Origin: an uncultured bacterium
GTDB taxonomy: Bacteria; CAZDME01; JAYEMH01
Assembly (NCBI GenBank): GCA_964506075.1
Contig: CAZDKO010000002.1
Span: forward strand, 16 to 64,015
DNA length: 64,000 nt
Direction of reading: 5' to 3'
This document shows, piece by piece, positions 2,037-59,620 of the stretch. Both the position numbers and the translations under genes were made by a program. The notes under the pieces are model-generated. The model saw only the letters and a list, made by a program, of their open reading frames with translations, was not told the origin of the DNA and ran no database searches. Positions within the stretch are counted from its first letter, which is position 1. Each line of letters opens with the position of its first letter.

Positions 2037-3830
2037 ATGGCTAATCTTGATATTTACGGAAGTTTTAAGTTTGTTGATAAAAAGGTGATTATTAAATTAA
2101 GAGACAAGGTCTGTGAAGACTCCGAAGAATTGCTCTCCAGCATATTATTTCGCGAGGTCGTGGAGAGATTAATGAAAAAACTTGTCAGGGAAAGTTCTCC
2201 TCTTTTACAGGTGTTCGGGAAAAAAGAAGATGACCCCGTCAATCAAAACGATATTGAAGTTATGATTAAAGTTTTACAGGTGCTGGGGAAAATGCCTCTA
2301 AAAGCCGTTCCTAAATTGATTGAAGGCTCCGGGCCGTTTATCCGGGACCCGGCTCTTTTAAATACTCTGGTGGAAAGATTATATAATTACTGGAGGGAAT
2401 TTGAACGGTTTATCGTCTGTGATTCCAAAAGGGACGCTCTGGATAAGCGTCCGTACCGGACGTTCAATTCAACGATTGAATCTCTGACTGATTTGGTGAG
2501 AAAGGTATACCGTGACATTCAGGAGAACATTACCGGAAAACACCCCATAATTTACCGGCAGGTGGGGGCCGGGGCAGAGATTGCGGCCATTGCCGTGCCG
2601 AAAGAAATTGAGCTTCCGGAAGGTTCTTATCAGAAATTAGCCGGTATTTCTTTAATCCGGCAGATACTGTTATATCCGCCTCTCCTGCTTAACCCGCCGA
2701 TGAATAAAAGAGCGGGTAAATTTGAACGGATAATTAAGAACCCTCTGGAAGAACTTGAAATTGATAAGAATGAATGGTTGTGTTACCCGGCTAAAGTAGG
2801 CCCGCTTTTAATTCTTATCTATTTTCACGAAATCTTTTTTGAACTGGGTTTTTCCTTATGTAATTTATTTGAGCTGGCGGATGACGAATTTTTAGCCCGG
2901 AAGCCCGACGCCGTGTATCTATTCGGTGTGCCGGGAACGGTGCTTGACCGGATGGAAGGACTTTCACCGACGGTTTTTTATGATGATACCGAGAGGGGAA
3001 TATTAACCGCGGCTATCCCCGGGAGAAAAGAATTCGGCTATTTCGGATATCTTAAAAAGATGGCTCTGACCCTTCATAATGTCAGGGTGATGAAAGACGG
3101 AAAGATGCCTTTTCACGGAGCAATGGTCAGGATTTTTATTAAGGGTGGTAAGGTGGTAACCATGCTGATTATCGGTGATACCGGAGCCGGTAAATCAGAA
3201 ACCCTTGAGGCCTTCAGGACAATAGGCGAAGAACAGATTGAAGAAATGATTATTATTGCCGACGATATGGGCTCGTTAAGTTTTAATCAGGAAGGGAAAA
3301 TTATCGGATATGGAACAGAGGTCGGGGCGTTTATCAGACTGGACGACCTCAAGCCCGGCTATGCCCTGGGACAGCTTGACCGCTCAATCATTATGAATCC
3401 CAGCCAGATTAACGCGCGGGTGGTATTACCGGTTACGACCTATGAAGAGGTAATCAAAGGATATCCCGTTGATATGATTTTTTATGCCAATAATTATGAA
3501 GAAGTTGACGAGGACCACCCGGTGATTGAACGTCTCTTAACTCCCGAAAAAGCGCTTAATGTTTTCCGGGAGGGGACGGCGATGAGTAAAGGGACGACGA
3601 CAACAACCGGCCTCGTCCATACTTATTTTGTCAATATCTTTGGAGCCATCCAGTATAAACCGCTTCACGATGAAATCGCCAGAAAATATTTTGACGAATT
3701 CTTCAGCCAGGGGATTTTCGTCGGGCAGCTCCGGACCCGGCTGGGCATTGCCGGATACGAAAGGAAAGGGCCGGAAGAAGCAGCTCGGGAATTATTGAAG
3801 ATGTGCGTTATGCCTCCGGAACTGATATAG
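2037..3830 (+). CDS. Large protein with HPr-kinase/PEPCK-fold-like P-loop domain, function unknown
   Basis: 597-aa ORF. It carries the motif pair IIGDTGAGKSETLEAF followed 19 residues later by IIIADD, resembling the HprK/P signature GxSGxGKSE...LVADD. The N-terminal ~370 aa are not recognisable. Confidence 0.45.
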   Translation: MANLDIYGSFKFVDKKVIIKLRDKVCEDSEELLSSILFREVVERLMKKLVRESSPLLQVFGKKEDDPVNQNDIEVMIKVLQVLGKMPLKAVPKLIEGSGPFIRDPALLNTLVERLYNYWREFERFIVCDSKRDALDKRPYRTFNSTIESLTDLVRKVYRDIQENITGKHPIIYRQVGAGAEIAAIAVPKEIELPEGSYQKLAGISLIRQILLYPPLLLNPPMNKRAGKFERIIKNPLEELEIDKNEWLCYPAKVGPLLILIYFHEIFFELGFSLCNLFELADDEFLARKPDAVYLFGVPGTVLDRMEGLSPTVFYDDTERGILTAAIPGRKEFGYFGYLKKMALTLHNVRVMKDGKMPFHGAMVRIFIKGGKVVTMLIIGDTGAGKSETLEAFRTIGEEQIEEMIIIADDMGSLSFNQEGKIIGYGTEVGAFIRLDDLKPGYALGQLDRSIIMNPSQINARVVLPVTTYEEVIKGYPVDMIFYANNYEEVDEDHPVIERLLTPEKALNVFREGTAMSKGTTTTTGLVHTYFVNIFGAIQYKPLHDEIARKYFDEFFSQGIFVGQLRTRLGIAGYERKGPEEAARELLKMCVMPPELI

Positions 3831-3858
3831 AAAGATATTGATACTCAGGGAAGAAAAG

Positions 3859-4221
3859 ATGTTTGACGTTGAAATTGACAAATCAAAAAATTTATTAAAA
3901 TTAAAATTCGCTTTAAATTTTACCGCAGAAGAAGCCAAACAGTGGCTTGAAAAAACCAGGGTTTATTTATCCCGGTTAAAACCAGGGTTTTTTATTTTAA
4001 CCGATATCAGTACCCTGGATAATATGGATTATGCCGCAGGAAAATATATAGATTCCATTATGGATGCTTGTAATAAAAAAGGAGTTTCTAAGGTGGTAAG
4101 AATTATTCCCGACAAGAGAAAAGATATCGGGTTTAATATTATGTCTATTTTTCATTATAAAAGCAACGTGCAAATTGTAAATTGTGAAACTGTGGATGAA
4201 GCCTTAAAACATCTACCCTGA
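3859..4221 (+). CDS. Small STAS/SpoIIAA-like protein (tentative)
   Basis: The ORF track starts at TTG 3838; an ATG at 3859 (MFDVEIDK) is preferred. Its ~120-aa size and pattern (FFILTDISTLDNMD...VSKVVRIIPD) recall STAS-type domains. The assignment is weak. Confidence 0.35.
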   Translation: MFDVEIDKSKNLLKLKFALNFTAEEAKQWLEKTRVYLSRLKPGFFILTDISTLDNMDYAAGKYIDSIMDACNKKGVSKVVRIIPDKRKDIGFNIMSIFHYKSNVQIVNCETVDEALKHLP

Positions 4222-4310
4222 ACGATTATCACCCGCCTCACGCCTTTCATTAGAAAGTATCCAGCCTAAGAAAGTTTCATAAAAGAGCCCGATGTTTTTA
4301 GTTAAATTTC

Positions 4311-4339
4311 TTACTATTTTTAAATGATGATGTTATAAT
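4311..4339 (+). promoter_or_regulatory. Candidate sigma70 promoter with extended -10
   Basis: TTACTA (4311-4316), 17-nt spacer, TGtTATAAT with TATAAT at 4334-4339, about 35 nt upstream of the ATG at 4375. AGGT/GGGAGG SD-like sequence lies just before the start. Confidence 0.4.
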
Positions 4340-4374
4340 TGTAAAAAACAACCGGAGTTGAAACGGGAGGTAAA

Positions 4375-5772
4375 ATGAAAGTTAAATTTTTAGGGGCGGC
4401 ACAGAATGTTACCGGCTCAAAATTCCTGCTTGAGACCGAAAAATCCCGTCTTTTAATAGACTGCGGTTTATACCAGGAAAGAGAGTTTCGTTACCGTGAC
4501 TGGGAAGATTTACCGGTTTCTCCCGCCAGTATTGATGAGGTAGTTTTAACTCATGCTCATATTGACCATTGCGGCTATTTGCCTAAATTAGTAAAGAATG
4601 GCTTCAAGGGTAGAATTTTCTGCACTCACCCGACGGCAGAGATTGCTGAAATTGCCCTTTTAGATTCGGCGAAACTGCAGGAAGATGATGCCGAATTCAA
4701 AAGGAAGCGGCATGAACACGAGGGAAAAAAAGGTCCTTATCCGGAAGTACCGCTTTATACTATTGCCGACGCCAGAAAGGTTTTTCCTCTTTTTGAAACT
4801 ATTTCTTATCACGAGGAATTTCAGGTGATGCCGGACGTAAAGGCAGTTTTTTATGATGCCGGCCACATCCTGGGAGCGACCATGCTTGAGTTAAAAATAA
4901 ATGAAAACGGAAAAGAAAAAATATGCGTTTTTTCCGGCGATCTGGGAAGATGGAATAACCCCATTTTACCGGACCCGGAGATTATCAATAAAGCCGACTA
5001 TGTTTTTATGGAATCAACGTATGGGAATAGACTGCATGAAGACCAGGAAACGGCCATAGAAAAACTCTGCCGGATAATAACGGATACCCAGGAAGCCGGA
5101 GGGAACGTGATAATACCGAGTTTTGCCATTGAAAGGGCACAGGAACTTCTTTATTATCTTTATAAACTTATACAAGCGGACCGGATTCCGCATCTTATGA
5201 TTTTTCTGGACAGCCCCATGGCCATTGACGTTACCGAAGTATTTAAAAAGTATTCTGATTATTTCAGCCCTGAAACCAGAAATTTGATAGAGGACGGGCA
5301 ATCTCCTTTTGATTTCCCGTTATTAAAAATAACCCGTTTAACCGAAGAATCCAAAGCCATAAATCACCTGAAGGGTACTTCCATCATAATTGCCGGTTCA
5401 GGTATGTGCACCGGCGGAAGAATCAAACATCATTTAGCCAATAACATCACCAGAGCCGAAAATACAATTCTTTTTATCGGTTATCAGGCCGAGGGAACTC
5501 TGGGCAGGGAGATACTGGAGCGGCCTAAAAAGGTGAGAATATTCGGGAAGATACATCCGGTGCAGGCCAGGATAGAGAAAATAAACGGTTTTTCCGCCCA
5601 TGCGGATAAAAATGAACTTTTAAAGTGGGTTTCTAATTTTACCGGGACCCCCGAAAAAATATTCGTTATTCATGGTGAAAAAAAAGTAGTGGCTGATTTT
5701 GCTTCTTTTTTAAGTGAAAGGTTAAAAAGCGAAATAATTATTCCGGAATACTTAAACGAATATAATCTTTAA
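4375..5772 (+). CDS. MBL-fold beta-CASP ribonuclease (RNA-metabolising metallo-beta-lactamase)
   Basis: HxHxDH motif (LTHAHIDHCGYLP). Its 465-aa size and C-terminal pattern (GFSAHAD...FVIHGE) are typical of beta-CASP/CPSF-like enzymes. Confidence 0.8.
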   Translation: MKVKFLGAAQNVTGSKFLLETEKSRLLIDCGLYQEREFRYRDWEDLPVSPASIDEVVLTHAHIDHCGYLPKLVKNGFKGRIFCTHPTAEIAEIALLDSAKLQEDDAEFKRKRHEHEGKKGPYPEVPLYTIADARKVFPLFETISYHEEFQVMPDVKAVFYDAGHILGATMLELKINENGKEKICVFSGDLGRWNNPILPDPEIINKADYVFMESTYGNRLHEDQETAIEKLCRIITDTQEAGGNVIIPSFAIERAQELLYYLYKLIQADRIPHLMIFLDSPMAIDVTEVFKKYSDYFSPETRNLIEDGQSPFDFPLLKITRLTEESKAINHLKGTSIIIAGSGMCTGGRIKHHLANNITRAENTILFIGYQAEGTLGREILERPKKVRIFGKIHPVQARIEKINGFSAHADKNELLKWVSNFTGTPEKIFVIHGEKKVVADFASFLSERLKSEIIIPEYLNEYNL

Positions 5773-47456: not shown

Positions 47457-48361
47457 TTGTGGGCTCAATTGCTCTTGATTCGGTAAAAACGCCTTTTGGG
47501 GAAGCCGAGGAAGTTTTAGGCGGTTCAGCTACTTATGCTTCTTACGCCGCCAGTTTTTTTACCACGCCGTATCTGGTGGGAGTAGTGGGAAAAGATTTTC
47601 CCGAGAAACACATTGAGCTTTTACGGGGAAAATCAATTGATTTAAAAGGGCTGATGGTTGAAGAGGGGAAGACTTTTCGCTGGAAGGGATATTATGATTT
47701 TGATTTAAACAGCGCCAAAACCCTTTCCACCTGTTTAAACGTGTTTCAGAATTTTCGTCCAAGGCTACCCGAGGAATACCGTAAAATCAAAAATGTTTTT
47801 CTGGGTAATATTGACCCTGATGTCCAGCTTGAGGTTATCGACCAGGTGGAAAGCCCGGAGCTGGTCGTCGGAGACACGATGAATTTCTGGATTAGCAATA
47901 AAAAAGAGGCGCTTCTAAAGGTTTTAAAAAAGATAAACGTTTTAGTTATCAATGACGCCGAGGCCAGGCAGTTATCGGAGGAGCCCAATTTAATTAAGGC
48001 CGGAAAAAATTTGCTTTCTTTCGGCCCGGAATATATAATTATCAAAAAAGGGGAGCACGGGGCGTTACTTTTTTCCGATTCGGTTTTCTTTTCCCTGCCG
48101 GCTTATCCTCTGGAATCTTTGTATGACCCGACCGGAGCCGGGGACAGTTTTGCCGGCGGCTTTATCGGTTATTTATCCGGCATAGATAATTTTAACGGCT
48201 CTGAATTTAAAAAAGCCCTGGTTTACGGGAGCGTGGTCGCTTCCTTTGACGTTGAGGATTTCAGTCTTAACCGTCTGGTAAAACTGAATAAAGAAGATAT
48301 AGACCGGCGGTATAAGGAATTTGTAAATATTTCGCATTTTGAAAATTTCAAGCGGGATTAA
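47444..48361 (+). CDS. PfkB-family carbohydrate/nucleoside kinase
   Basis: Start re-picked to ATG 47444 (MAVLIVGSIALD). GGSATYAS and DPTGAGDSFAGGF are present. The last 10 nt overlap tRNA-Gly. Confidence 0.8.
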   Translation: MAVLIVGSIALDSVKTPFGEAEEVLGGSATYASYAASFFTTPYLVGVVGKDFPEKHIELLRGKSIDLKGLMVEEGKTFRWKGYYDFDLNSAKTLSTCLNVFQNFRPRLPEEYRKIKNVFLGNIDPDVQLEVIDQVESPELVVGDTMNFWISNKKEALLKVLKKINVLVINDAEARQLSEEPNLIKAGKNLLSFGPEYIIIKKGEHGALLFSDSVFFSLPAYPLESLYDPTGAGDSFAGGFIGYLSGIDNFNGSEFKKALVYGSVVASFDVEDFSLNRLVKLNKEDIDRRYKEFVNISHFENFKRD

Positions 48362-48426
48362 CTCAGCGGTAGAGTGCAACCTTCCCAAGGTTGAGGCCAC
48401 GGGTTCGAATCCCGTATCCCGCTCCA
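48352..48426 (+). tRNA. tRNA-Gly (anticodon CCC), CCA encoded
   Basis: GCGGGAT-TA-ACTC...CAACC-TTCCCAA-GGTTG...ACGGGTTCGAATCCCGT-ATCCCGC-TCCA. Confidence 0.9.
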
Positions 48427-48600
48427 GAGTTACGGCTAATAGCGTATGGCGGATAGCCAATAGCACGTGGCAAATAGCGGATAGCACATAGCTGATAGCG
48501 AATAGCAGATGGCTTATGGCAGATGGCGTATAGCCAATAGCAGATGGTTAATTGGTAATTTGTTTTTGCCATCAGCTATCTGCTATAAGCTATTCGCCAA
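48427..48600. repeat. Low-complexity GATAGC/GATGGC/AATAGC word repeat block between tRNA-Gly and tRNA-Ser
   Basis: A run of 6-8-mers (GGCGGATAGCCAATAGCACGTGGCAAATAGCGGATAGC...) ends in a partially complementary tract (GCCATCAGCTATCTGCTATAAGCTATTCGCC). The same words occur at 39195-39240. Confidence 0.7.
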
Positions 48601-48605
48601 AAACC

Positions 48606-48695
48606 GGAGAGGTGCCAGAGCGGTCGATCGGAGCTGCCTGCTAAGCAGTTGAACCCGAAAGGGTTCCCTGGGTTCGAATCCCAGCCTCTCCGCCA
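48606..48695 (+). tRNA. tRNA-Ser (anticodon GCU), long variable arm, CCA encoded
   Basis: GGAGAGG-TG-CCAG...CTGC-CTGCTAA-GCAG, variable arm TTGAACCCGAAAGGGTTCC, then CTGGGTTCGAATCCCAG-CCTCTCC-GCCA. Confidence 0.9.
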
Positions 48696-48721
48696 CCGCC
48701 GCTTTGCTTCGCAAAGCGAAG

Positions 48722-49040
48722 CAGCGGTGGCAGAGAATCGAAAATCGAAAGTCGAGAATAGATAAAAATAGGTTTTCGATTCGGTCAATTTTCGATTATC
48801 GATTTTCAAGCTTTGTATTTCTTTAAGCAAAGGGTAAATTTTCAGCAGCGGTGGCAGAGCAATCGAGAATCGAAAATCGAAATTAGATTTAAGAAGATTC
48901 TTGATTGCGGTCAATTCTCGATTTTCTATTTTCGGAAAAATCTAAGAATAACAGAGAATCGAAAATCGAGATTCGAAATTAGATAAAAGGAGATTTTTGA
49001 TTCGGTCAATTTTCGATTATCGATTTTCAATTTTCAAAAT
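48722..49040. repeat. Three tandem ~100-124-bp units of an (AATCGA)n-rich imperfect palindrome
   Basis: The units start near 48731, 48855 and 48952. Each has a left arm (A)GAATCGAAAATCGA(A/G)A.TCGA.AAT.AGAT and a right arm TTGATTCGGTCAATTTTCGATTATCGATTTTC. Units 1 and 2 are each preceded by CAGCGGTGGCAGAG (48722, 48846). Confidence 0.8.
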
Positions 49041-49041
49041 C

Positions 49042-49386
49042 ATGGCATTTATATTCGAGAAATTAGACGTTTACAGAAAGGCCGTTGATTTCGCGGACAA
49101 AATCTGCGACTTAACTAAAGATTTTCAAAAGGGAAATTATTATTTGGCTGACCAGTTAAATCGTGCATCATTGTCAATATCCACGAATATAGCAGAAGGC
49201 AACGGCAAGTATCATAAAGCAGATAGAGTTAATTTCTTTCGAATAGCGCGCGGTTCGGCATTTGAGTGCGTACCAATTTTAGAAATATGCAAAAGGAAGA
49301 AACTCATTGCTGAAGAGTTAAATGCATCTTTAAAGAAGGAAGTGGAAAACATCTGCAAAATGTTATCTGGTCTTATAAACACCTAA
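49042..49386 (+). CDS. Four-helix-bundle protein (23S rRNA intervening-sequence protein / Avd-like family)
   Basis: Start re-picked to ATG 49042. MAFIFEKLDVYRKAVDF...QLNRASLSISTNIAEGNGKYHKADRVNFFRIARGSAFE matches this family's hallmark pattern. Confidence 0.85.
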   Translation: MAFIFEKLDVYRKAVDFADKICDLTKDFQKGNYYLADQLNRASLSISTNIAEGNGKYHKADRVNFFRIARGSAFECVPILEICKRKKLIAEELNASLKKEVENICKMLSGLINT

Positions 49387-49410
49387 CCACTTTAACAGGA
49401 AACCACACCA

Positions 49411-50172
49411 ATGAAACAATGGTACGAATTATTATTTGAGAATTACGCCCGCAAATACGATAAAGAATGTTATGTCCAGGGAACGACTGGCGAGTGCGAC
49501 TTTATTGAGCAGGAGATAAATCGCGATAAGTCGATAAAGATCCTGGATATCGGCTGCGGCACGGGACGCCATGCTATTGAACTGACAAAAAGGGGATACA
49601 ACGTTACCGGCGTTGACCTTTCCGAGAATCAGATAAAAAGGGCAAGGGAAAAGGCCCAAGAGGCAGGGGTGACCATCGATTTCCAAATACAAGATGCGCG
49701 CAATCTCTCTTTTGACGGCAAATTTGATCTGGCGATTATGTTGTGTGAAGGCGGATTCCCTCTGATGGAAACAGATGAGATGAATTTTGAGATACTCAAG
49801 AACGCCACAAAAGCGCTGAAAGATAAAGGCAAGCTCATTTTCACCACATTAAACGGATTGTTTCCGCTGTTTCATTCGGTCAATGAATTCTATGAGTCGG
49901 CGCAGAAAGAAGGCCAATCCCAGTGTAAGGAGTGCTCCTTTGATCTGATGACTTTCCGAGACCATAATACAACAGTTTTTGAAGATGACTCCGGGAATAA
50001 AAGAGAACTCAAAAGCAATGAGCGCTACTATGTGCCAAGTGAACTCACATGGCTTTTAAAGACGCTGGGGTATAAGAAAATAGAAATTTTTGGGGCGAAG
50101 CTGGGCGCGTATTCAAGAAAAGATAAGCTGACGACTGAAGATTTTGAAATGCTGGTGATCGGACAGCGGTAG
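49411..50172 (+). CDS. Class I SAM-dependent methyltransferase
   Basis: Motif I ILDIGCGTGRHAIEL and post-I VTGVDLS. 253 aa. Confidence 0.8.
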   Translation: MKQWYELLFENYARKYDKECYVQGTTGECDFIEQEINRDKSIKILDIGCGTGRHAIELTKRGYNVTGVDLSENQIKRAREKAQEAGVTIDFQIQDARNLSFDGKFDLAIMLCEGGFPLMETDEMNFEILKNATKALKDKGKLIFTTLNGLFPLFHSVNEFYESAQKEGQSQCKECSFDLMTFRDHNTTVFEDDSGNKRELKSNERYYVPSELTWLLKTLGYKKIEIFGAKLGAYSRKDKLTTEDFEMLVIGQR

Positions 50173-50208
50173 TAGAAAATCGAGAATCGAGAATCGAAAA
50201 TAGATTAT
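50173..50208. repeat. Left-arm-only copy of the (AATCGA)n element
   Basis: GTAGAAAATCGAGAATCGAGAATCGAAAATAGAT lies directly after the methyltransferase stop. Confidence 0.7.
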
Positions 50209-50232
50209 AAGAGGACAGGAATTAAATAAAAA

Positions 50233-50676
50233 ATGGCAAACGATAAAAGTCTTATAAAAAATAAAGTATTAGTTCGTCGGTACATCGAGGAAATTATTAA
50301 TACGGGAAATGTCAAGGAGATAGAAAAGTTTATTTCCCCGGATTACCTTGAGATTGGCGAAGGTAAAAACAACGCTTTCGGAATTAAGGGGGCGAAAGAA
50401 CATATTTTAGGTGTCCGGCAGACGTATCCTGACTTAAAATTGACGGTTGACCACCAAATTGCCGAAGGTGACTGGGTAGCGACCTACATAACCGCCCGTG
50501 GCACCCATAAGGGAACCTGGCTGGGTATAAAGCCAACCGGTAAGGTCGTAACCTATACCGGCGTTAATATAAATAAAATAGTTGATGGCAGAATTGTCGA
50601 ACATGGCGGAGCCGCCAATCTTCTTTTAGAGTTACTGAAAATTGGAGCGGTTCGGGTGGTAGGGGCAAAAAAATGA
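50233..50676 (+). CDS. SnoaL-like ester cyclase family protein
   Basis: 147 aa with NKVLVRRYIEEIINTGN, GTHKGTWLGIKPTGK and VDGRIVEHGG. Confidence 0.75.
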   Translation: MANDKSLIKNKVLVRRYIEEIINTGNVKEIEKFISPDYLEIGEGKNNAFGIKGAKEHILGVRQTYPDLKLTVDHQIAEGDWVATYITARGTHKGTWLGIKPTGKVVTYTGVNINKIVDGRIVEHGGAANLLLELLKIGAVRVVGAKK

Positions 50677-50680
50677 GCCG

Positions 50681-50775
50681 CCCCCGTGCTTGTTTTGTTT
50701 ATCCCCATGTTTAGTTTTATAAAATAAAACTACGGGGGTAGAAAATCGAGAATCGAAAATCGAAATTAGATAAAA
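50681..50775. repeat. Family-H palindromic element (50681-50738) abutting another left-arm (AATCGA)n copy (50738-50775)
   Basis: CCCCCGTGCTTG...TTTTGTTTATCCCCAT...AGTTTTAT-AAA-ATAAAACTACGGGGG is followed by GTAGAAAATCGAGAATCGAAAATCGAAATTAGAT. The termini match 8095-8199 and the inner arm matches 58159-58230. Confidence 0.7.
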
Positions 50776-50983
50776 AAGGTTGTTTTTTATGATGATAATA
50801 AAAAATACCTTAACGGATTCGTTAATCATGGTGGCGGAAAAATAATTAAAACCTTCGCTGAAAATGGCGGAGGTTTCTATTTATTGTATGGTATGAAAAA
50901 GTGGTCTGACCCCTTTTTTATTAGATGTTAAGATTGAAAGGTTGATATTAGATTAAATATACGATATTGAGGAGGAAAATACC

Positions 50984-52261
50984 ATGGCCATAAGAGAAAA
51001 AGTAGAGTCACTTGAAAAAGTAAGTGAGGCAACCGATCGCACACTACGTTTATGGCTCAGAGGCAGAAAGCAAGACTTGCGTGTTTACAGGATCCCGATA
51101 AAGCACCTCTATTTTAATATTGAGAATGGCCGATACGCAGACAAGATGATACAGCTTAGGGCTGATAATCCAGGCGTAGATATTGACCCAAAATCAGATG
51201 TGTGGAGAGATGAAATCTATAAAATGTTAAAAGGTGAATATGTAGGAACAATCGAAGCTGAAGGGACAGAACGTGACGAAGTTGACTTCGATAGATTAAG
51301 CGAAGACATAAGAAAAAGAGAGCAACTGAATCCAGGCATAGTTCTTGCAGATGGCGGTGTAATAGATGGAAATAGGCGATTAGCTGTTCTTATGTCTTTA
51401 GATGATGAAAGATTTAGCCACTTTGATGGTGTTATTCTTCCAGATGATATTTCTGCAGAAGATAGGTGGAGAATTGAAGTAGGGGTCCAGCTTGGAAAAG
51501 ACCAACAATTAGATTATTCCCCTATTAATAAATTGTTGAAAATTAGGCAAGGTTTGCTTATGTATAAATCCATGAAATTACCTAGCGGAAAATCTGCAGA
51601 AGATATGGTAGCTGAGGCCCTATATGGTGTATCAAAAAAAGAGGTTTCAGAGAGTATAGATCTAATTAACCTGATCGATGAATATCTAGATTTTTTCAAA
51701 TGCAAAGGTCAATATCATCAGGTAGCAGATAAAAACGAACGGTTTATTGAAGCCCTTGGCAGTTTAAAAGCGGCAGAAGGAAAACTAGCTCCTCACGAGA
51801 TAGCAAAGCTAAAAGTTCAATTATTCGTTATTGTAAAAGAAGGCATTATGTCCAACTGGGAGATTAGGGACGTAAAACGTGCATTAGGGGGAATTCAAAA
51901 AGCTAGGGGACGGAAAAGTACGCTAATCCAAAAAGCAGTAGGGCATTTGATTGCTCATACAACAGATCCTAAAACAGTTCGAGATGCCTATACAGATAAT
52001 ACCCAAGGTAAGATAGTATTAAAATCTAAAACAATATGTCGAGAATTTAAAGATATTTTTGAAGCAGAAAAAGATGCTAATCAACCTCTTACATTAGCGA
52101 AAGATGCTCGTGCGAAATTAGATACATTAAAAGAATCTCTAAAAGATTTTAAGAAACCTGAAGATGCACTTGCCATAGTAGAAGAACTATCCATTATGAA
52201 AAAGCTTATAAGAGCGTGTCTAAGCACTGTTAAATTGCCGAAGCATAAAGTTAAGGGGTAA
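50984..52261 (+). CDS. ParB/Srx-fold (DUF262/DndB-like) N-terminal domain protein, first gene of candidate defence cassette
   Basis: Strong SD (GAGGAGG). YRIPIKHLYFNIENGRY and LNPGIVLADGGVIDGNRRLAVL resemble the ParB/Srx signature (xDGxxR). The C-terminal ~250 aa are helical and unrecognised. Confidence 0.55.
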   Translation: MAIREKVESLEKVSEATDRTLRLWLRGRKQDLRVYRIPIKHLYFNIENGRYADKMIQLRADNPGVDIDPKSDVWRDEIYKMLKGEYVGTIEAEGTERDEVDFDRLSEDIRKREQLNPGIVLADGGVIDGNRRLAVLMSLDDERFSHFDGVILPDDISAEDRWRIEVGVQLGKDQQLDYSPINKLLKIRQGLLMYKSMKLPSGKSAEDMVAEALYGVSKKEVSESIDLINLIDEYLDFFKCKGQYHQVADKNERFIEALGSLKAAEGKLAPHEIAKLKVQLFVIVKEGIMSNWEIRDVKRALGGIQKARGRKSTLIQKAVGHLIAHTTDPKTVRDAYTDNTQGKIVLKSKTICREFKDIFEAEKDANQPLTLAKDARAKLDTLKESLKDFKKPEDALAIVEELSIMKKLIRACLSTVKLPKHKVKG

Positions 52262-52278
52262 CCCATAGGTATTAGTGT

Positions 52279-54201
52279 ATGGCAATACGATTGTATTTTA
52301 CTCAAGAAGGTAATTTAGAGATAAATTCGTTAGAACAAAATAATTTTTCTATAGAAGAGGAAGGAACTGTTTTAGTTCTGCCTTTTAGGACTATTGAAAA
52401 AGACCGTCACCATATTATCATAAACCCAGGGGAGAAACTAAATGAGACGATAGAATACATATTATCCGAACTTAAAAATAAAAATTATATAGTTGAACTT
52501 GATTCTTATTTAAAAAAGTATTGGGATAATTATATTCTCGAGAAAAATAAAATAAGAGACATAAGAAGGGAAAAAACAAGATTAAGCGTTGACAATAAAG
52601 CGATAAGGCCTATTTTTAAATACACACGTCAACCATTTTCTCATCAGCTTAGAGGAATACGTCATGCGTTAAATTTGGAAAATGCAGCTAATTTTTCTGT
52701 ACCAGGAAGCGGGAAAACGCAAGTTGCTTTAGGTATTTTTATGTATTTGAAAACAAAGAAAGTTGTGGAGAAATGTTTTGTTATAGGACCCGCAAGTTGT
52801 TTCGAACCATGGGAAAATGAAGCAAGAGAGTGTCTACAGCGGCCAATTACGGTGTTGCGTTGGTCAGGGAGTGTTACGAAGAGGCGCAGAATAGGCAGTC
52901 TTGCCAGAAACAGTGATTTAATACTGATAACATATCAAACAGCTTGTAATGATTTTTTATTATTAGAACAGATACTCAGACGATATAAAACTCTTCTGGT
53001 ATTAGATGAATCACATCATGTTAAGAATCCAAATGGATCACGCGCAAAAGCTATTTTACGTCTTTCCCCATTTTCTACTAAAAGATTAATTCTTACAGGC
53101 ACACCGGCTCCACATTCTCTATTTGATGTATGGACACAATTTTCTTTTCTTTGGCCATCTCAACAACTTATAAAGGATTTTTATTCATTTAAAAGAGAAT
53201 TAGAATCACACAAGAACCCAGCAGTCAAACTGAAACGGGATCTTAATCCATATTTCATTCGAACAACAAAAAAGGAATTAGGACTTCCCGAAATTAAATG
53301 GGATATTGATTTTATAAACAAAAAAGATATTCCCTCTGAACAGAGAAAAATTATTGACCTTTTAGAGCTAAAGACATTAACAGAGGCTAGGAAATTTGGT
53401 CTTTCAGATGTAGATATGGATGTCTTGTATAAATGGAGAATAGCAAGAATTATTAGATTATTACAAGCTGCATCAAACCCAGCTCTTTTGTTAAAAAGAA
53501 TAGATTGCTGTAACATTGAGAAGAGCCTGGATGTCGATATGTCAGATCTGGTAAATTATGCGAATGTATTTTTAAGTCTAAAAAAATTACCTATAAAGAT
53601 AGATATCGTTATAAAAAAGACAAAAGCACTCGTAGAGTCAGGAAAAAAGGTTATAGTCTGGTCATGGTTTGTAGAAAACTTATGTCTTTTGGAAAAGCTG
53701 TTAAATAAATATAATCCGCTAATGATATATGGTGAAATTAAACCCTACGAAGAAAAAGAAGATTCAGCATTAGAAGAAAGTAGAGAACGGAATATACGCG
53801 ATTTTAAAAAGAAAAAGGACAGACCTATATTGTTGGCCAATCCGGCTGCCTGTGCAGAATCAATATCTCTACACAAACAGTGCCAGGATGCAATATATCT
53901 TGATAGAAATTTTAATTGCGGACAATTTTTACAATCAATGGACCGTATTCATAGGGTTGGAATGCCGCGCGACACAACAGCTCTATATCACATTCCTATC
54001 ATTGATTGCGCTATTGAGCGTAGCATAGATAAACGCCTCAAAAAACGCCAGCAAGATCTTTACACAGTTCTTAACGATCCAATGCCAGTTTTAGGTGTTG
54101 ATGATGACGCCTGGCTTGCAGATTCGACTGGTGAGCTAAACGATGCGTTTGATGATGTAATAAAAGAAATAAAAAATGAGAAAAGAAAACACTCTATATA
54201 A
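52279..54201 (+). CDS. SNF2-family (SF2) helicase/translocase
   Basis: Motif I VPGSGKTQ, motif II LVLDESHHVKN, motif III LILTGTPAP and motif VI QSMDRIHRVGM. The N-terminal ~120 aa are unassigned. Confidence 0.85.
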   Translation: MAIRLYFTQEGNLEINSLEQNNFSIEEEGTVLVLPFRTIEKDRHHIIINPGEKLNETIEYILSELKNKNYIVELDSYLKKYWDNYILEKNKIRDIRREKTRLSVDNKAIRPIFKYTRQPFSHQLRGIRHALNLENAANFSVPGSGKTQVALGIFMYLKTKKVVEKCFVIGPASCFEPWENEARECLQRPITVLRWSGSVTKRRRIGSLARNSDLILITYQTACNDFLLLEQILRRYKTLLVLDESHHVKNPNGSRAKAILRLSPFSTKRLILTGTPAPHSLFDVWTQFSFLWPSQQLIKDFYSFKRELESHKNPAVKLKRDLNPYFIRTTKKELGLPEIKWDIDFINKKDIPSEQRKIIDLLELKTLTEARKFGLSDVDMDVLYKWRIARIIRLLQAASNPALLLKRIDCCNIEKSLDVDMSDLVNYANVFLSLKKLPIKIDIVIKKTKALVESGKKVIVWSWFVENLCLLEKLLNKYNPLMIYGEIKPYEEKEDSALEESRERNIRDFKKKKDRPILLANPAACAESISLHKQCQDAIYLDRNFNCGQFLQSMDRIHRVGMPRDTTALYHIPIIDCAIERSIDKRLKKRQQDLYTVLNDPMPVLGVDDDAWLADSTGELNDAFDDVIKEIKNEKRKHSI

Positions 54202-55183
54202 TTTAATAAAATCCAATGGAAATTTAGGAGAGATAGCGCTTGTTTTAAGACCACTACAGAAGGGGGCGCTTGAAGACTGGGTTCTTAAAGTTTGCATTTA
54301 TAAGCAAGCTGGGGTGAGCACTAGAATACCTGAGCCAGATACACTAATAAATGCTTCAGCAGTTTTAGGGCTGGTAGAAATCAGAAAAAGGAAGAAAAAT
54401 AGAGTAGTGTCTCTTTCGAGGCTTGGCAAAAATATTGTTAGATTAAAAACTGTAGAAAAAGATAGACTGACAAAACAACAAGGAAAGATCATTTTTTCTA
54501 TTGCACTAGAAAAAATGGATATTATAGATGATGTGTTATCTGTAATAAATATGTTTAACATTTATCAAAATGGAGATTTTAGGATTAGTAGTAATGATAA
54601 CCGAATTAATTATCTTGAGGACCAAATTCTCCGCCTATTCCAGCAGTTAAAAATTGCTACCTATCAAAACGGAAATATAATCGTTGAAAAAAAAGACAAA
54701 GAATGGTTAATTGCTTTAATCTCATCCATACGTGAGACTAGCATAGATGAGCTCTTAGACCTACTGACTTTGAAAAGGAAGTATGGAATAATGGCAGAGG
54801 ATTTTGTATTGCGGAAAGAGAAAGAAAGACTGGTTAAGATTGGGCGCATGGATCTTGCTAGTTTAGTTAAGAAAATAAGTGACCAGAATATTTCTGCGGG
54901 ATATGACATTTTGTCCTTTGATGGATGCAAATCGTCTCTTATTCCAGATAGATTTATTGAAGTAAAGGGAAGCTCAAATAATCAGTTAGTTTTTTATATA
55001 TCAAAAAATGAAATACAAATAGCACAAAAAATGCAAGATAAATATTGGATATATTGTGTATTGGGCGTAGGAAATCCAACTAATCAAAAAATAGAAATAA
55101 TAAATAATCCATATAAAAGAATTTTTCAGGAAAAGCAGTTTAACATAGAACCCATTTTGTGGCGGATAAGCGAAAAAAGATAA
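54176..55183 (+). CDS. DUF3883-type PD-(D/E)xK nuclease-like protein with N-terminal putative wHTH/recognition region
   Basis: The C-terminal GYDILSF...DRFIEVKGS...FYISKNEIQIAQ...YWIYCV matches the DUF3883 restriction-endonuclease-like pattern (D...EVK). The start overlaps the SNF2 gene by 26 nt. Confidence 0.6.
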   Translation: MRKENTLYNLIKSNGNLGEIALVLRPLQKGALEDWVLKVCIYKQAGVSTRIPEPDTLINASAVLGLVEIRKRKKNRVVSLSRLGKNIVRLKTVEKDRLTKQQGKIIFSIALEKMDIIDDVLSVINMFNIYQNGDFRISSNDNRINYLEDQILRLFQQLKIATYQNGNIIVEKKDKEWLIALISSIRETSIDELLDLLTLKRKYGIMAEDFVLRKEKERLVKIGRMDLASLVKKISDQNISAGYDILSFDGCKSSLIPDRFIEVKGSSNNQLVFYISKNEIQIAQKMQDKYWIYCVLGVGNPTNQKIEIINNPYKRIFQEKQFNIEPILWRISEKR

Positions 55184-55208
55184 TGAGCAACCATTAATTA
55201 TCAGAGAG

Positions 55209-56045
55209 ATGAATATACAAAAGAGTTTTAATAAGATTATATGCGGTGACTGTCTGGATGTTTTAAAAGATTTTCCAAATAGTTGCATAGATTTAATAAT
55301 AACATCCCCGCCTTATGCAAATAGCCGGAAGGCTGATTATGGAGGTATACAGCCATCCGAATATGTTGCTTGGTTATTACCGCGCACCGAACAATTTATG
55401 CGAGTATTAAAGCCGAGCGGTACCTTTATATTAAATATAAAAGAGAAGGTGGTGGATGGCGAAAGGCATACGTATGCAATTGATTTAATTCTTAAAATGC
55501 GTGAACAGGGTTGGCGTTGGACAGAAGAATTTATTTGGCACAAAAAGAATTCTTTCCCTGGAAAATGGCCAAATCGTTTCAGAGATGCTTGGGAAAGATG
55601 TTTGCAGTTCAATAAACGCAAACAATTTAAAATGTACCAAGATGCAGTAAAAATTCCTATTGGCGAATGGGCAAATTATAGACTTAAGAATTTGAGTGAT
55701 AGTGATAATATAAGATTGGACTCGCATTCAAAAAGCGGCTTTGGCAGACGCGTCGCTAATTGGGCCGGCAAAAAAAAGGTATATCCAACAAATGTGTTAC
55801 ATATAGCAACAGAATGTGCTAATAGAAGTCATAGTGCCACGTTTCCTATTGGACTACCTACATGGTTTATAAAATTATTTACTAAAAAGGGAGATGTTGT
55901 GCTAGATCCTTTTATCGGTTCTGGTACAAGTGCCGTGGCTTCTAGGAAACTTAGCAGAAAGTATATTGGTATTGATATTGAAAAAAAGTTTTGTGAATTA
56001 GCTCAAAAAAATATAAATAAAAATTGTTCCAAGGAAAATTACTAA
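55209..56045 (+). CDS. Beta-class DNA amino-methyltransferase (N4-C or N6-A; motif IV SPPY)
   Basis: Motif IV IITSPPYAN lies near the N-terminus and motif I VLDPFIGSGTSAVA near the C-terminus. HSATFP is also present. This order is typical of PF01555-type MTases. Confidence 0.85.
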   Translation: MNIQKSFNKIICGDCLDVLKDFPNSCIDLIITSPPYANSRKADYGGIQPSEYVAWLLPRTEQFMRVLKPSGTFILNIKEKVVDGERHTYAIDLILKMREQGWRWTEEFIWHKKNSFPGKWPNRFRDAWERCLQFNKRKQFKMYQDAVKIPIGEWANYRLKNLSDSDNIRLDSHSKSGFGRRVANWAGKKKVYPTNVLHIATECANRSHSATFPIGLPTWFIKLFTKKGDVVLDPFIGSGTSAVASRKLSRKYIGIDIEKKFCELAQKNINKNCSKENY

Positions 56046-56336: not shown

Positions 56337-57206
56337 ATGCGCGCCTCTAAATATATAGCTATAGGGATAGTTTTTTTACTAGCAGCCGTTGTGCAGGGGT
56401 CGCTTAGATATATTACGCCGGAATTAATTAGTACATTCCAGAATAATCCTATACTAATAAATGTTTTGGCGGGACTGTCTCATAATAAATTCTATACATC
56501 AGTAATAGCCAGCACAATAATGGCGTCTCAATTATTATTGGGGATTATTTTATATCCGCGAGATTATATAAAAAAGCGAAAAACAAAAATTCTGAAACGC
56601 ATACATTCAAATTTATTTAATGATGATACCAATCACAGGGTAACGTTATTTAAAGAGGTAGGTTATATTCACGCATTGTGGGAATATGTGTGGACATTAT
56701 TTTATCACTTAAGGCCGAAATATTTCTTTAGGTTTTTGCTTCATTTAAAAAAATTCCCATGCCCGGCAAATTATTTAATCATAGATATCAGAGAGGGACG
56801 CTTTAAAAAATCACGGACAATGTTCAAAGTAGAAGAAAACATTTTGGGCAACTGCGAAGGAATTGTCGGAATGATAAGATGCCAAAAAGCTATGAGCCTT
56901 TGCGTTTCCGATTTGCCAGATATAACAAATATAGACCTCGATAGTATAGATTTATCAAATATGCGAAAGAACGAAACTAAAACAGTTCGAGAGTATATGG
57001 AAAAGGGTTACATAAAAAACATAGAATCGTTAAAAATTCTACATTTAAAATCTCGACATTTTTTAGGTTCGGTAATTTATAAAACCGAAGGCGTGCCATG
57101 CGCAATGCTTTTAGTAGATAGTACATCAGAATCTAATCCATTTACAGAAAAGGTGGTGGATAAGTTTACTGTATATAGTGAATTTTTAACTGACTTGATA
57201 TCATAA
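56337..57206 (+). CDS. Membrane protein: two N-terminal TM helices plus GAF-like cytoplasmic domain (tentative)
   Basis: TM segments YIAIGIVFLLAAVVQGSL and SVIASTIMASQLLLGIILY. The C-terminal pattern (RVTLFKEVG...GIVGM...HFLGSVIY..EGVPCAMLLVDS...F) loosely resembles GAF folds. No confident family match. Confidence 0.35.
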   Translation: MRASKYIAIGIVFLLAAVVQGSLRYITPELISTFQNNPILINVLAGLSHNKFYTSVIASTIMASQLLLGIILYPRDYIKKRKTKILKRIHSNLFNDDTNHRVTLFKEVGYIHALWEYVWTLFYHLRPKYFFRFLLHLKKFPCPANYLIIDIREGRFKKSRTMFKVEENILGNCEGIVGMIRCQKAMSLCVSDLPDITNIDLDSIDLSNMRKNETKTVREYMEKGYIKNIESLKILHLKSRHFLGSVIYKTEGVPCAMLLVDSTSESNPFTEKVVDKFTVYSEFLTDLIS

Positions 57207-57220
57207 TAAAGGAGATAGAA

Positions 57221-57643
57221 ATGACCACTATTAACATTGACCAGAATAGATACAAACAAGCTATACCATTTTTTGATTCGAGAGGAATAAAAATAACCAT
57301 GTATTTACCACCGATTTTTATTCCCCAATCAGTAAACGGTAGCTATATATCAGAGGACGACTCTTTTGAAATAAAATTTAACTATAAAGAAATAGAAGTA
57401 GCAATAACGTTATTTGATAATGATCACGCCCGTTTTATGGTAGGAAAACATACAAAAAAACCGTTAGCCCTGCATATAAAAAATGTAAAGAAACAAGGTG
57501 TTACATTTATTACTTTAGAACAAATTTTTAATGATGCAATAAGCAAAGTAGATAAACCTATAGAAAAGGGTAATATGGAAGTAGCAAAATCTGTTGTTAC
57601 AGATAATGTTGAAAGTTTTGCAAGTACAGTCCCTAGTATATAA
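57221..57643 (+). CDS. Hypothetical protein (140 aa)
   Basis: AAGGAG SD sits 6 nt upstream, with a 14-nt gap to the preceding gene. No recognisable motif. Confidence 0.4.
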   Translation: MTTINIDQNRYKQAIPFFDSRGIKITMYLPPIFIPQSVNGSYISEDDSFEIKFNYKEIEVAITLFDNDHARFMVGKHTKKPLALHIKNVKKQGVTFITLEQIFNDAISKVDKPIEKGNMEVAKSVVTDNVESFASTVPSI

Positions 57644-57661
57644 AATTATTTCGAGGATCAA

Positions 57662-58027
57662 ATGAAAGATGTCACAAGAAGAGCCGTTGCGTTTATTGCA
57701 GGGTGCTTAATAAGCGGGGAAAAAGCGTCTGCGATATATGATTATTCTGCGGCAAAATATTTCAATTTTAGTGGTAAAGTATCCGAAAAGGATATATCCC
57801 TTTATGATCATGAGCTAAATTGTAACATTATTGCGGGATTCGGAACTGTAAATTCTTATTCACTATACCATTACGGCACTAAGAAACACATTGCCCTTGA
57901 AATAAAACAAGCAAATTTTACAGGATACGACTACGATTCGGGGAAACATTTCCAAGGTTCTGTAGCTAATACAGCTATAAATATATATGATTATGAAACA
58001 GGACAGTATTATAATTTCTCGATATAG
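57662..58027 (+). CDS. Hypothetical protein made of ~5 degenerate ~20-aa YDY-type beta-hairpin repeats; weak lipobox
   Basis: Repeats: IYDYSAAKYFNFSG / LYDHELNCNIIAGFG / LYHYGTKKHIALEI / GYDYDSGKHFQGSV / IYDYETGQYYNFSI. The N-terminal RRAVAFIAGC resembles a short lipoprotein signal. Confidence 0.4.
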   Translation: MKDVTRRAVAFIAGCLISGEKASAIYDYSAAKYFNFSGKVSEKDISLYDHELNCNIIAGFGTVNSYSLYHYGTKKHIALEIKQANFTGYDYDSGKHFQGSVANTAINIYDYETGQYYNFSI

Positions 58028-58063
58028 TATCAGGTCCGTCAAAATATTCTTTTTCAGCAAAAA

Positions 58064-58098
58064 GGTAAAATTTTGGTGCGGGAAAATTTTGCCTTTTT
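58064..58098 (+). terminator. Rho-independent terminator ending the three-gene module
   Basis: GGTAAAATTTT-GGTGCGGG-AAAATTTTGCC stem-loop (one mismatch) followed by TTTTT. Confidence 0.55.
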
Positions 58099-58158
58099 GT
58101 GAGGTGTTTTCACGTTGAACAAAAAAGGGTCAGAATCGTTTTTGATTAAGTATTGTCT

Positions 58159-58230
58159 CCGTAATTTTGTTTATTCCCATAGTTTTATTTTATAAAACTA
58201 AACATGGGAATAAACAAAATAAACACGGGG
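58159..58230. repeat. Family-H palindromic element, long near-perfect hairpin
   Basis: TTTTGTTTATTCCCAT and ATGGGAATAAACAAAA form a perfect 16-bp inverted repeat. The inner pair is AGTTTTAT-TTT-ATAAAACT and the outer pair CCGT/ACGG. Confidence 0.75.
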
Positions 58231-58251
58231 ATGGCGCTAAAAAGCGCAAGG

Positions 58252-58300: not shown

Positions 58301-59620
58301 ATGAGAAAAAGAAATAGACTTCTTAATGAAGCAAATATTTTGCCTGACAACCTGGAATTAAATGATGAATTCGTAGACACTTTTAATTTAATAGAAAATA
58401 CGGATGACAGCATTTTTATTACCGGTAAGGCCGGTACCGGTAAATCAACCCTCCTTAAATATTTCAAAAAGAACACCGCTAAAAATGTCGCTATTTTAGC
58501 GCCGACCGGTATTGCGGCCATAAATGTTGGCGGCCAGACAATCCACTCTTTTTTCAGATTTCCGCCTCGTTTAATCCAGAAGGATAATATTCGCAGAAGA
58601 CGTAACAGTATAATCATTCAAAGACTCGACACAGTAATAATCGATGAAGTTTCTATGGTGCGCGCCGACGTTATGGACGGGATTGACTATGCGCTTAGGA
58701 TTGGTCGTGATGAGATGAAGCTGCCATTCGGTGGCGTCCAGATGGTATTTTTGGGAGATTTATTTCAGCTTCCCCCGGTGGTAGAGAAGGAAGCGCAAGA
58801 CATTTTTGACCAGCGCTACGATAGTCCGTATTTTTTTAAAGCCAAAGTTTTCAATAAACTGAACCTGCGATATGTGGAGTTGAATAAAAATTACCGCCAA
58901 TCAGATACCCGATTTGTTGATTTGTTGAATAAAATCCGGAATAAGACTCAAGGGGATGATGACCTTGAGCTGCTGAATGAGAGAGTGACAAAAATAATCC
59001 CGGGAGATTATAATCATCGTGTTTTTTTGACGGCTACCAATAACCGCGCCAATGCGATAAATGAAGAAAAATTAGCCGGTCTACTTGACCAGGAATATAA
59101 ATATGAAGCCGATATTACCGGCAAATTTGAAGAATCTGCTTATCCAACGGAGGATTGTTTGAGGCTTAAGAAGGGAGCACAGATTATTTTGATAAAAAAT
59201 GACCCTGATAAAAGATGGGTAAATGGCACCATTGCGGAGATTGCGGCGTTATCCCCGGGCACTATAAAAGTTTCTATAAATGGAAACATTCATGAGGTGG
59301 CAAAGGCAACCTGGGAAAAGATTAAATACGAATATAATTTAGACGAAGATAAAATTGAAGAAAAGATAATCGGTACCTTTGAACAATATCCGATAAAACT
59401 AGCCTGGGCAATTACCATCCACAAGAGCCAGGGCCAGACTTTTGACAATATTATTATAGATTTAGGAGCCGGCGCTTTTAGTCATGGCCAGGTATACGTT
59501 GGTCTTAGTCGCTGCACTTCGCTGGAAGGTATTATTTTAAAAAGGCCGGTAATTGAGAGCGACATTATTTTTGATGAAAGAGTCTACGAGTTTAGAAACA
59601 GATTTCTGAATTTAATATAA
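58301..59620 (+). CDS. PIF1/RecD-like SF1B DNA helicase
   Basis: Walker A ITGKAGTGKST, Walker B VIIDEVSMV, GDLFQLPPV, NYRQ, TIHKSQGQTFD and YVGLSRCTSLEGI. Confidence 0.85.
   Translation: MRKRNRLLNEANILPDNLELNDEFVDTFNLIENTDDSIFITGKAGTGKSTLLKYFKKNTAKNVAILAPTGIAAINVGGQTIHSFFRFPPRLIQKDNIRRRRNSIIIQRLDTVIIDEVSMVRADVMDGIDYALRIGRDEMKLPFGGVQMVFLGDLFQLPPVVEKEAQDIFDQRYDSPYFFKAKVFNKLNLRYVELNKNYRQSDTRFVDLLNKIRNKTQGDDDLELLNERVTKIIPGDYNHRVFLTATNNRANAINEEKLAGLLDQEYKYEADITGKFEESAYPTEDCLRLKKGAQIILIKNDPDKRWVNGTIAEIAALSPGTIKVSINGNIHEVAKATWEKIKYEYNLDEDKIEEKIIGTFEQYPIKLAWAITIHKSQGQTFDNIIIDLGAGAFSHGQVYVGLSRCTSLEGIILKRPVIESDIIFDERVYEFRNRFLNLI

Follow-up and report, generated by a model that had tools for sequence, protein, structure and literature searches.

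We analyzed a 64,000-nucleotide stretch of DNA from an uncultured bacterium (GenBank assembly GCA_964506075.1, contig CAZDKO010000002.1; here called the window), in which three consecutive genes of one strand, designated A, B, and C, follow a cassette that resembles a restriction-modification (RM) system. Gene A (positions 56337 to 57206, plus strand) encodes a basic membrane protein of 289 amino acids (aa) with two transmembrane (TM) helices and a GAF-like motif pattern, gene B (57221 to 57643, plus strand) encodes its soluble partner of 140 aa, and gene C (57662 to 58027, plus strand) encodes a protein of 121 aa made of an N-terminal helix and five YDY β-hairpin repeats. The intergenic gaps are 14 nucleotides (nt) between A and B and 18 nt between B and C, exactly as stated in an initial annotation made from the sequence alone. 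That annotation also gave each open reading frame a Shine-Dalgarno-like sequence, and as read from the sequence this holds for B (AAGGAG on the plus strand at 57209 to 57214, 6 nt before the ATG) and for C (GAGGA on the plus strand at 57653 to 57657, 4 nt before the ATG); A is preceded only by a weak AAAAGG. A terminator-like hairpin with an 18-bp stem closes the module on the plus strand at 58052 to 58104 (−21.2 kcal/mol; z = −4.06; equalled by 0 of 200 shuffles). The clean terminator previously placed at 58064 to 58098 therefore stands as a strong hairpin, and it is less clean than described in that its U-tail, GAGGUGUUUU, is poor. Comparison of the sequences upstream of A in four loci revealed no conserved promoter or operator, and a scan for sigma-70 sites returned no more of them than in shuffled sequence.

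All three are genuine, protein-constrained coding genes. In comparisons of A, B, and C with their closest homologues, the proportion of synonymous differences (pS) is about 0.75, which is saturated, while that of nonsynonymous differences (pN) is 0.25 to 0.36, and both length and reading frame are kept; a check for a coding signature, proposed together with the initial annotation, thus found purifying constraint. None of the three proteins has a significant match in Pfam, NCBIfam, PHROGs, or PADLOC, nothing at an E value of ≤0.1 was returned by the component hidden Markov models of PADLOC-DB v2.0.0, and searches of Protein Data Bank (PDB) sequences with the A, B, and C family profiles gave chance-level matches only. 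The earlier failure to recognize any of them as a known family was therefore warranted.

The three genes do not constitute a single unit, as had been annotated, but a conserved A-B pair followed by C as a rider: A-B is conserved in seven loci, and C stands beside it in only two. In 7 of 7 distinct loci checked for B, a B-type gene of 140 to 159 aa lies on the same strand directly 3′ of A. These loci are the window and L001, L003, L004, L022, L033, and L035, once duplicates are collapsed (L002 and L015 are L001, L034 is L033, and L023 is L022). The A-B gap is 14 nt in the window, 12 nt in L001, 16 nt in L003, 1 nt in both L004 and L022, 30 nt in L033, and 22 nt in L035, and the pairing is kept down to approximately 25% identity in A. 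A-B is thus a conserved unit, and its layout is that of a type II toxin-antitoxin (TA) system: two small, co-directional, tightly spaced genes whose pairing is conserved in divergent homologues. C is found 3′ of B in the window and in L003, with a gap of 18 nt in both, and is absent after B in L001, L022, L004, L033, and L035.

Protein B has a β-rich N-terminal half carrying the motif FxIxFxY...VG+xT+K, a helical C terminus, and a near-neutral charge. Neither B nor its homologues match Pfam, and a PDB profile search with B found no match. B homologues are clear in the closer loci, whereas distant loci retain only the motif and the helical tail; the B-type gene of L035 is B-like by position, size, and motif only (profile match, E = 0.15). 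B evolves faster than A, at 43 to 49% identity versus 57 to 59% for A, and 28% versus 35%. In L016, an A relative at 31% identity has no B after it and is followed instead by a nucleoside-deoxyribosyltransferase/methyltransferase fusion.

Protein A has a pI of 9.4 and a net charge of +12 (+10 to +18 in homologues). Its hydropathy profile has two peaks, at about residues 6 to 22 and 53 to 73, in agreement with the two N-terminal TM helices noted before. Because both peaks are flanked by positive charge, a cytoplasmic location is predicted for the soluble domain. The AlphaFold model of A (pLDDT 66.6, medium confidence) shows the two TM helices, the second extending as a 44-residue helix (residues 51 to 94), followed by an α/β domain. 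This soluble domain is probably GAF-like, judging from the model and from an alignment in which, by our interpretation, the motifs HRVTLFKE, CEGIVG...DLPDI, RHFLGSVI, and PWGMLLVDS...PF follow the order of GAF_2. When the model was searched against PDB with Foldseek, no match was significant (best E = 0.2), and the top 50 were almost all GAF-fold structures, including tandem GAFs, IclR ligand-binding domains, CodY, fRMsr, and a phytochrome GAF (E ≥ 0.2). By hhalign, the A profile aligned to a genuine TM-GAF_2 protein with E = 8.8e-4 and a probability of 23% over 52 columns, covering the last two strands and the C-terminal helix; a 60-sequence A profile searched against PDB did not find a GAF chain. 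The loose GAF resemblance described in the initial annotation is therefore plausible from motif order and from the structural matches, although it does not reach significance in either Foldseek or GAF profile searches.

A belongs to a large family. A word-indexed search returned seven relatives only; an exhaustive profile search yielded 412 representative clusters (50% identity) at E ≤ 1e-3 and 200 at E ≤ 1e-10, nearly all of 275 to 300 aa with full-length matches. No Pfam domain was found in 60 sampled members. Across the family, R101 and R152 are invariant, and T103, G175, Y220, L232, G256, and D261 are at least 90% conserved. Distribution is patchy, with the closest relatives scattered across metagenomes, and a metagenome scan added one further A locus only. 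Searches of IMG/VR viral contigs (four subfamily alignments) and of PLSDB plasmids (tblastn with four members) returned no A-family member.

We next consider the neighborhoods of the pair. A-B lies next to unrelated methylases or RM systems in five of the seven loci (the window, L001, L003, L004, and L022), and every A-family locus with at least 8 kb of context has a defense system within a few genes. The long-context loci are L001, L003, and L022 with type II RM (L001 counted on its methylase only, restriction enzymes being scored in L003 and L022), the window with its RM-like cassette, and L016 with Lamassu. In L001, the neighbors are a helix-turn-helix (HTH) protein, a 347-aa open reading frame, and a divergent N6/N4 methylase; in L003, a C5 methylase and a type II restriction enzyme (E = 1e-39) lie downstream. 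L022 reads resolvase, A, B, C5 methylase, BpuJI/NOV_C restriction enzyme (E = 8e-139), C5 methylase, Vsr, and integrase. In L004, the N terminus of a DPP-motif methylase, judged by eye, begins 245 nt downstream. L033 and its duplicate L034 carry A-B alone between proline-racemase-like and M24-peptidase-like genes, as judged by eye from partial translations. A check of homologue contexts, also proposed at the outset, thus finds defense genes beside A in every context of ≥8 kb and one pair (L033/L034) among housekeeping genes.

The methylases neighboring A-B share only 28 to 31% mutual identity and differ in class (N6/N4 versus C5), side, and strand, and so they represent independent RM systems rather than one inherited arrangement. 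The earlier annotation had left open whether the module is an independent system or an accessory of the upstream cassette. We favor independence and set aside a specific accessory role, because the partner methylases are unrelated and the pair stands without RM in L033/L034. The occurrence of that pair alone among housekeeping genes is as expected for an autonomous cassette; from these gene orders, A-B appears to behave as one that tends to land in defense islands.

In L016 (1338 to 7772), the fusion gene that comes after the B-less relative is followed by a probable dTMP kinase (assigned by eye from its P-loop), a 298-aa protein of unknown function, and, on the opposite strand, a complete Lamassu system (LmuA/B/C) adjacent to the A relative. 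This region may be a nucleotide- or DNA-modification module in a defense island.

Protein C differs from the pair in both structure and distribution. The initial annotation described about five repeats of roughly 20 aa, and five are indeed present, hairpin repeats of 16 to 21 aa with a YDY/YDH/YHY core at residues 26, 48, 69, 89, and 109. Its AlphaFold model is confident (pLDDT 96.1; pTM 0.90) and consists of a helix at residues 3 to 18 followed by ten strands, which correspond to the five hairpin repeats. Foldseek searches of this model against PDB and BFVD found no significant neighbor (best E = 0.015, best TM-score 0.51); the weak fold matches are LolA, a fatty acid-binding protein (FABP), lipocalin, CpeT, RsfG, and a de novo designed barrel (TM-score ≤ 0.51, E ≥ 0.015). 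Structural searches of the kind suggested with the annotation thus gave GAF-fold matches at E ≥ 0.2 for A and nothing significant for C. The weak lipobox (FIAGC) reported for C does not hold up, and we rejected C as a lipoprotein: Cys15 is replaced by R, S, T, A, or V in homologues, the maximum 19-residue hydropathy is 1.3, too low for a hydrophobic segment, and the N terminus is a packed helix (residues 3 to 18, pLDDT approximately 96). The nearest family is DUF5334 (PF17268), itself of no known function, which gives a sub-threshold match over one YDY hairpin in 9 of 13 C-family members (best E = 0.0029); window C scores 15 bits (E = 0.031) over about 18 residues, against a gathering cut-off of 25 bits.

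C is a separately mobile gene that is found repeatedly at the 3′ end of unrelated defense operons; we call it separately mobile because its partners (SIR2, PDC-S59, Bub, HNH, and A-B) are unrelated to one another. In three loci (L009 to L011), C shares 4 nt with the stop end of the gene for a 337-aa SIR2_2 protein, and a 1342-aa Mrr-helicase adjoins. The overlap is GTGA and the neighbor an Mrr_cat-helicase (6991 to 8366 in L009, and likewise in L010 and L011), and SIR2_2 plus C is a candidate two-gene SIR2 system that is not described as such in PADLOC. In L008, the SIR2 gene appears truncated. C follows a PDC-S59 ATPase in L005 and L006 (E = 3e-135), lies 26 nt before an HNH_5 nuclease in L014, and is 2.4 kb from an NsnA-like protein in L012. 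In L021, it comes after an operon of Multi_ubiq, a ThiF E1, and BubE; here (2218 to 4467) C starts 42 nt after the Multi_ubiq, DUF6791/ThiF, and BubE genes of a Bub-type ubiquitin-like conjugation system, and an HTH_3 and Peptidase_M78 pair flanks the operon.

In Corallococcus sp. M7 (L007, 8001 to 11338), C lies 1.9 kb from a TM-GAF_2 protein, with an insertion sequence (IS; HTH plus DDE_3) between them. The GAF_2 protein (304 aa) has hydrophobic segments near its N terminus and a genuine GAF_2 domain, and its gene overlaps one that encodes a TM protein of 68 aa; here a C-family gene is juxtaposed with a membrane GAF protein a second time, and independently. C homologues also occur in nine IMG/VR contigs (L024 to L032) and in a prophage-like Burkholderia genomic locus (L013), and some lie near housekeeping genes (SufBD, HtpG, iol). 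C was not found in GenBank phages by tblastn with three C-family members. A PLSDB match in an iol operon, at 20.7% identity, was weak and was set aside as doubtful.

Within the window, the three genes sit in a segment that is a horizontally acquired RM island. The RM-like cassette (50984 to 56045, plus strand) ends 291 nt upstream of A and has four genes, encoding a 425-aa protein of unknown function, an SNF2 helicase, a NOV_C/DUF3883 nuclease-domain protein, and an N6/N4 DNA methylase. Together, the cassette and the A-B-C module have a GC content of 34.2%, compared with 41.4% for the window. A 69-nt inverted repeat, its left arm at 50677 to 50745 being 86% complementary to its right arm at 58167 to 58235 just past the terminator hairpin, exactly brackets this low-GC segment of 7.4 kb. 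It has two copies in the 64-kb window, where the chance expectation is 0. The inverted repeats may be island ends or terminator elements like repetitive extragenic palindromes; each copy is itself partly palindromic. No transposase or integrase was found inside the bracketed segment. The low GC content, the inverted-repeat bracket, and the RM-like cassette bear out the defense-island setting proposed in the initial annotation.

Several further features of the cassette and its flanks were seen. In the cassette, the 425-aa protein has no family match, and its DGNRR motif recalls ParB/Srx folds; the SNF2 helicase is ZorD/DpdE-like in PADLOC, and the NOV_C/DUF3883 gene overlaps the helicase gene by 26 nt. 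As a four-gene RM-like system the cassette is unusual, and no complete system in PADLOC corresponds to it. About 2 kb upstream of the island are two tRNA genes, in a region (48352 to 50789) that contains tRNA-Gly and tRNA-Ser with a 7/21-nt periodic repeat between them (48434 to 48552) and, from 48736 to 50789, five copies of a 46-nt element (AATCGAAAATCGA...) among small genes; it looks like an integration hotspot or a repeat-rich junction just upstream of the island. Directly past the right repeat arm lies a gene for a PIF1/RecD-like helicase (58301 to 59620; PADLOC matches PDC-S68 and RecD_like), which may be a further defense-type gene flanking the island.

How might A-B act? We propose that it is an autonomous two-gene TA or abortive-infection-type pair carried in the RM island, with C as a separate mobile accessory, and we put the probability of this reading at about one-half. 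The proposal is made because A matches the membrane toxin toxFtsL_D9, compared in detail below, in size and architecture and has an obligatory small partner. It is further supported by the strongly basic charge of A (+10 to +18) beside a near-neutral B and by the resolvase and integrase of L022. Under this proposal, A would be anchored in the inner membrane by its two TM helices, with the basic helix and GAF-like domain facing the cytoplasm, and would be the growth-arresting component. B would be translated from the same transcript, co-evolve rapidly with A, and serve as its cognate neutralizer or as a sensor of the trigger. Once infection or the loss of the element had freed A from B, A would act at the membrane; by analogy with toxFtsL_D9, its target would be cell division or an envelope function rather than the formation of simple pores. 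From context only, C would probably modulate, or sense for, its accompanying effector. The toxicity of A and its neutralization by B, like the part played by C, the sensor and effector roles named in the initial annotation, and any function against phages, are inferred from comparative analysis and structure prediction only, over a small sample of contexts.

Several observations weigh against this proposal. The GAF profiles PF01590, PF13185, and PF13492 do not match A at E ≤ 0.1, and none matches any of 60 A-family members at E ≤ 0.01. The fold of A comes from a medium-confidence model in which residues 142 to 190 fall below a pLDDT of 50. B lacks both a Panacea domain and a recognizable DNA-binding antitoxin domain, and A was likened to toxFtsL_D9 by size, architecture, and gene layout, not by sequence. 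The identical B-C gap of 18 nt in the window and L003 suggests that in this subgroup C functions as a third member. Finally, the association with defense genes comes from approximately 10 independent loci, a small sample of a family of at least 412 clusters.

Three of the alternatives that we considered assign A-B a different kind of function. A could be a ligand-gated membrane effector whose GAF-like domain binds a second messenger or metabolite and whose TM helices then oligomerize and collapse the membrane, like the TM effectors of Pycsar, of the cyclic-oligonucleotide-based antiphage signaling system (CBASS), and of Thoeris, with B and/or C generating, sequestering, or sensing the signal. 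The combination of TM helices with a ligand-binding type of fold would fit such an effector, and the invariant or near-invariant polar residues R101, R152, T103, Y220, and D261 suggest a pocket. The best of the weak fold matches of C are ligand-carrying β-barrels (FABP, lipocalin, CpeT, and LolA), and the Corallococcus C homologue lies near another TM-GAF_2 protein, across the IS element. However, the C matches do not exceed a TM-score of 0.51 or fall below E = 0.015, B and C have no enzyme-like signature, no cyclase, TIR protein, nucleotidyltransferase, or other signal producer lies in the module or consistently adjacent to it, and the only tested TM-plus-GAF toxin did not depolarize membranes (PMC10440598). 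We consider this mechanism quite improbable. An equally improbable arrangement, in our estimate, is one in which A-B, with or without C, guards the RM system in the manner of PrrC-EcoprrI, monitoring RM integrity or anti-restriction attack and killing the cell when RM is disabled, or in which A-B reinforces post-segregational killing by the RM island. The frequency of A-B directly beside a methylase or RM (5 of 7 loci) is consistent with such a link, as are the low GC content and inverted-repeat bracket that the module shares with the cassette and the B-less relative adjoining a deoxyribosyltransferase-methyltransferase fusion and, by eye, a probable dTMP kinase. Yet the RM partners are unrelated (N6/N4 or C5, 28 to 31% identical, upstream or downstream, on the same or the opposite strand), which makes a specific physical partnership between A-B and RM unlikely; the A-B flanks of L033 and L034 contain no RM gene, and general clustering of defense genes in islands explains the adjacency equally well.

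If the pair had a role outside defense, A would be a membrane-bound protein of GAF type that senses or regulates an envelope or stress process, B would be its partner, and the island location would be incidental hitch-hiking. GAF domains are mostly housekeeping signaling modules, the short flanks of L033, L034, and L035 are free of defense genes, and some C homologues adjoin SufBD, HtpG, and iol genes. We nevertheless judge this role very unlikely: A has no output domain, its distribution is patchy with the closest relatives scattered in metagenomes, the composition of the island is low in GC, and defense genes lie beside the family in every long context. There is a small chance, which we still class as unlikely, that both parts of the locus are novel, with C representing a new family of small proteins, made of a helix and five β-hairpins, that act as an interchangeable sensor or adaptor common to effectors of unrelated mechanism (the SIR2 NADase, the PDC-S59 ATPase, Bub, the HNH nuclease, and A-B), and with A-B representing an abortive-infection system of a new type that acts at the membrane and detects a cue of infection through its GAF-like domain.

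The A family, with at least 412 clusters at 50% identity, is unnamed in protein-family and defense databases; it has a conserved partner in B and recurs beside RM and Lamassu. If A-B is indeed a TA or abortive-infection pair, the known effectors gain a widespread type that acts at the membrane, antitoxins gain a new fold, and toxFtsL_D9, the single validated TM-plus-GAF toxin, would take its place within a broad class. C is compact and confidently modeled, has no significant structural neighbor, and travels with at least five different defense partners. It could show how a single sensing or regulatory part comes to be shared by unrelated effectors, and we see a smaller chance that it is something new in kind.

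Among known systems, PrrC-EcoprrI resembles A-B in being a suicide-type module in or beside an RM locus. It differs in that A-B has no anticodon-nuclease or ATPase domain, has heterogeneous RM partners, and also occurs without RM. Effectors that join TM helices to a sensor include PycTM of Pycsar, the 2TM-SAVED and Cap15-type effectors of CBASS, the TM-Macro ThsA of type II Thoeris, and Cam1 of CRISPR systems. A shares with these its short length, its N-terminal TM helices followed by a predicted cytoplasmic fold of a small-molecule-binding type, and its location in defense islands, but it has no accompanying signal-generating enzyme, and PADLOC models for such systems do not match it. To our knowledge, a GAF-type sensor is not among the sensor domains described for these effectors.

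The closest comparison is with toxFtsL_D9 of Gelidibacter mesophilus (WP_027127282.1), a protein of 281 aa annotated as "GAF; FtsL; transmembrane" (NetFlax; Ernits et al. 2023, PMC10440598). It has been validated as a toxin that is directly neutralized by PanA, a small stand-alone antitoxin encoded by the neighboring gene, and its effects are filamentation, divisome inhibition, and delayed lysis, with the membrane not depolarized (PMC10440598). In size, it is close to A (289 aa) and to the A family (275 to 300 aa). In architecture, its predicted TM helices, elongated helical region, and GAF domain parallel the TM helices, the helix at residues 51 to 94, and the tentatively GAF-like domain of A. 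Both are encoded in two-gene arrangements with a small protein, PanA in one case and B in the other, and toxFtsL_D9 likewise belongs to the gene pool of TA and phage-defense systems. The antitoxin of toxFtsL_D9 is a Panacea (DUF4065) protein, unlike B, which matches no family, and in the window a third gene, C, follows the pair. By this analogy, A-B would be best classed as a membrane TM-plus-GAF toxin pair with a new partner.

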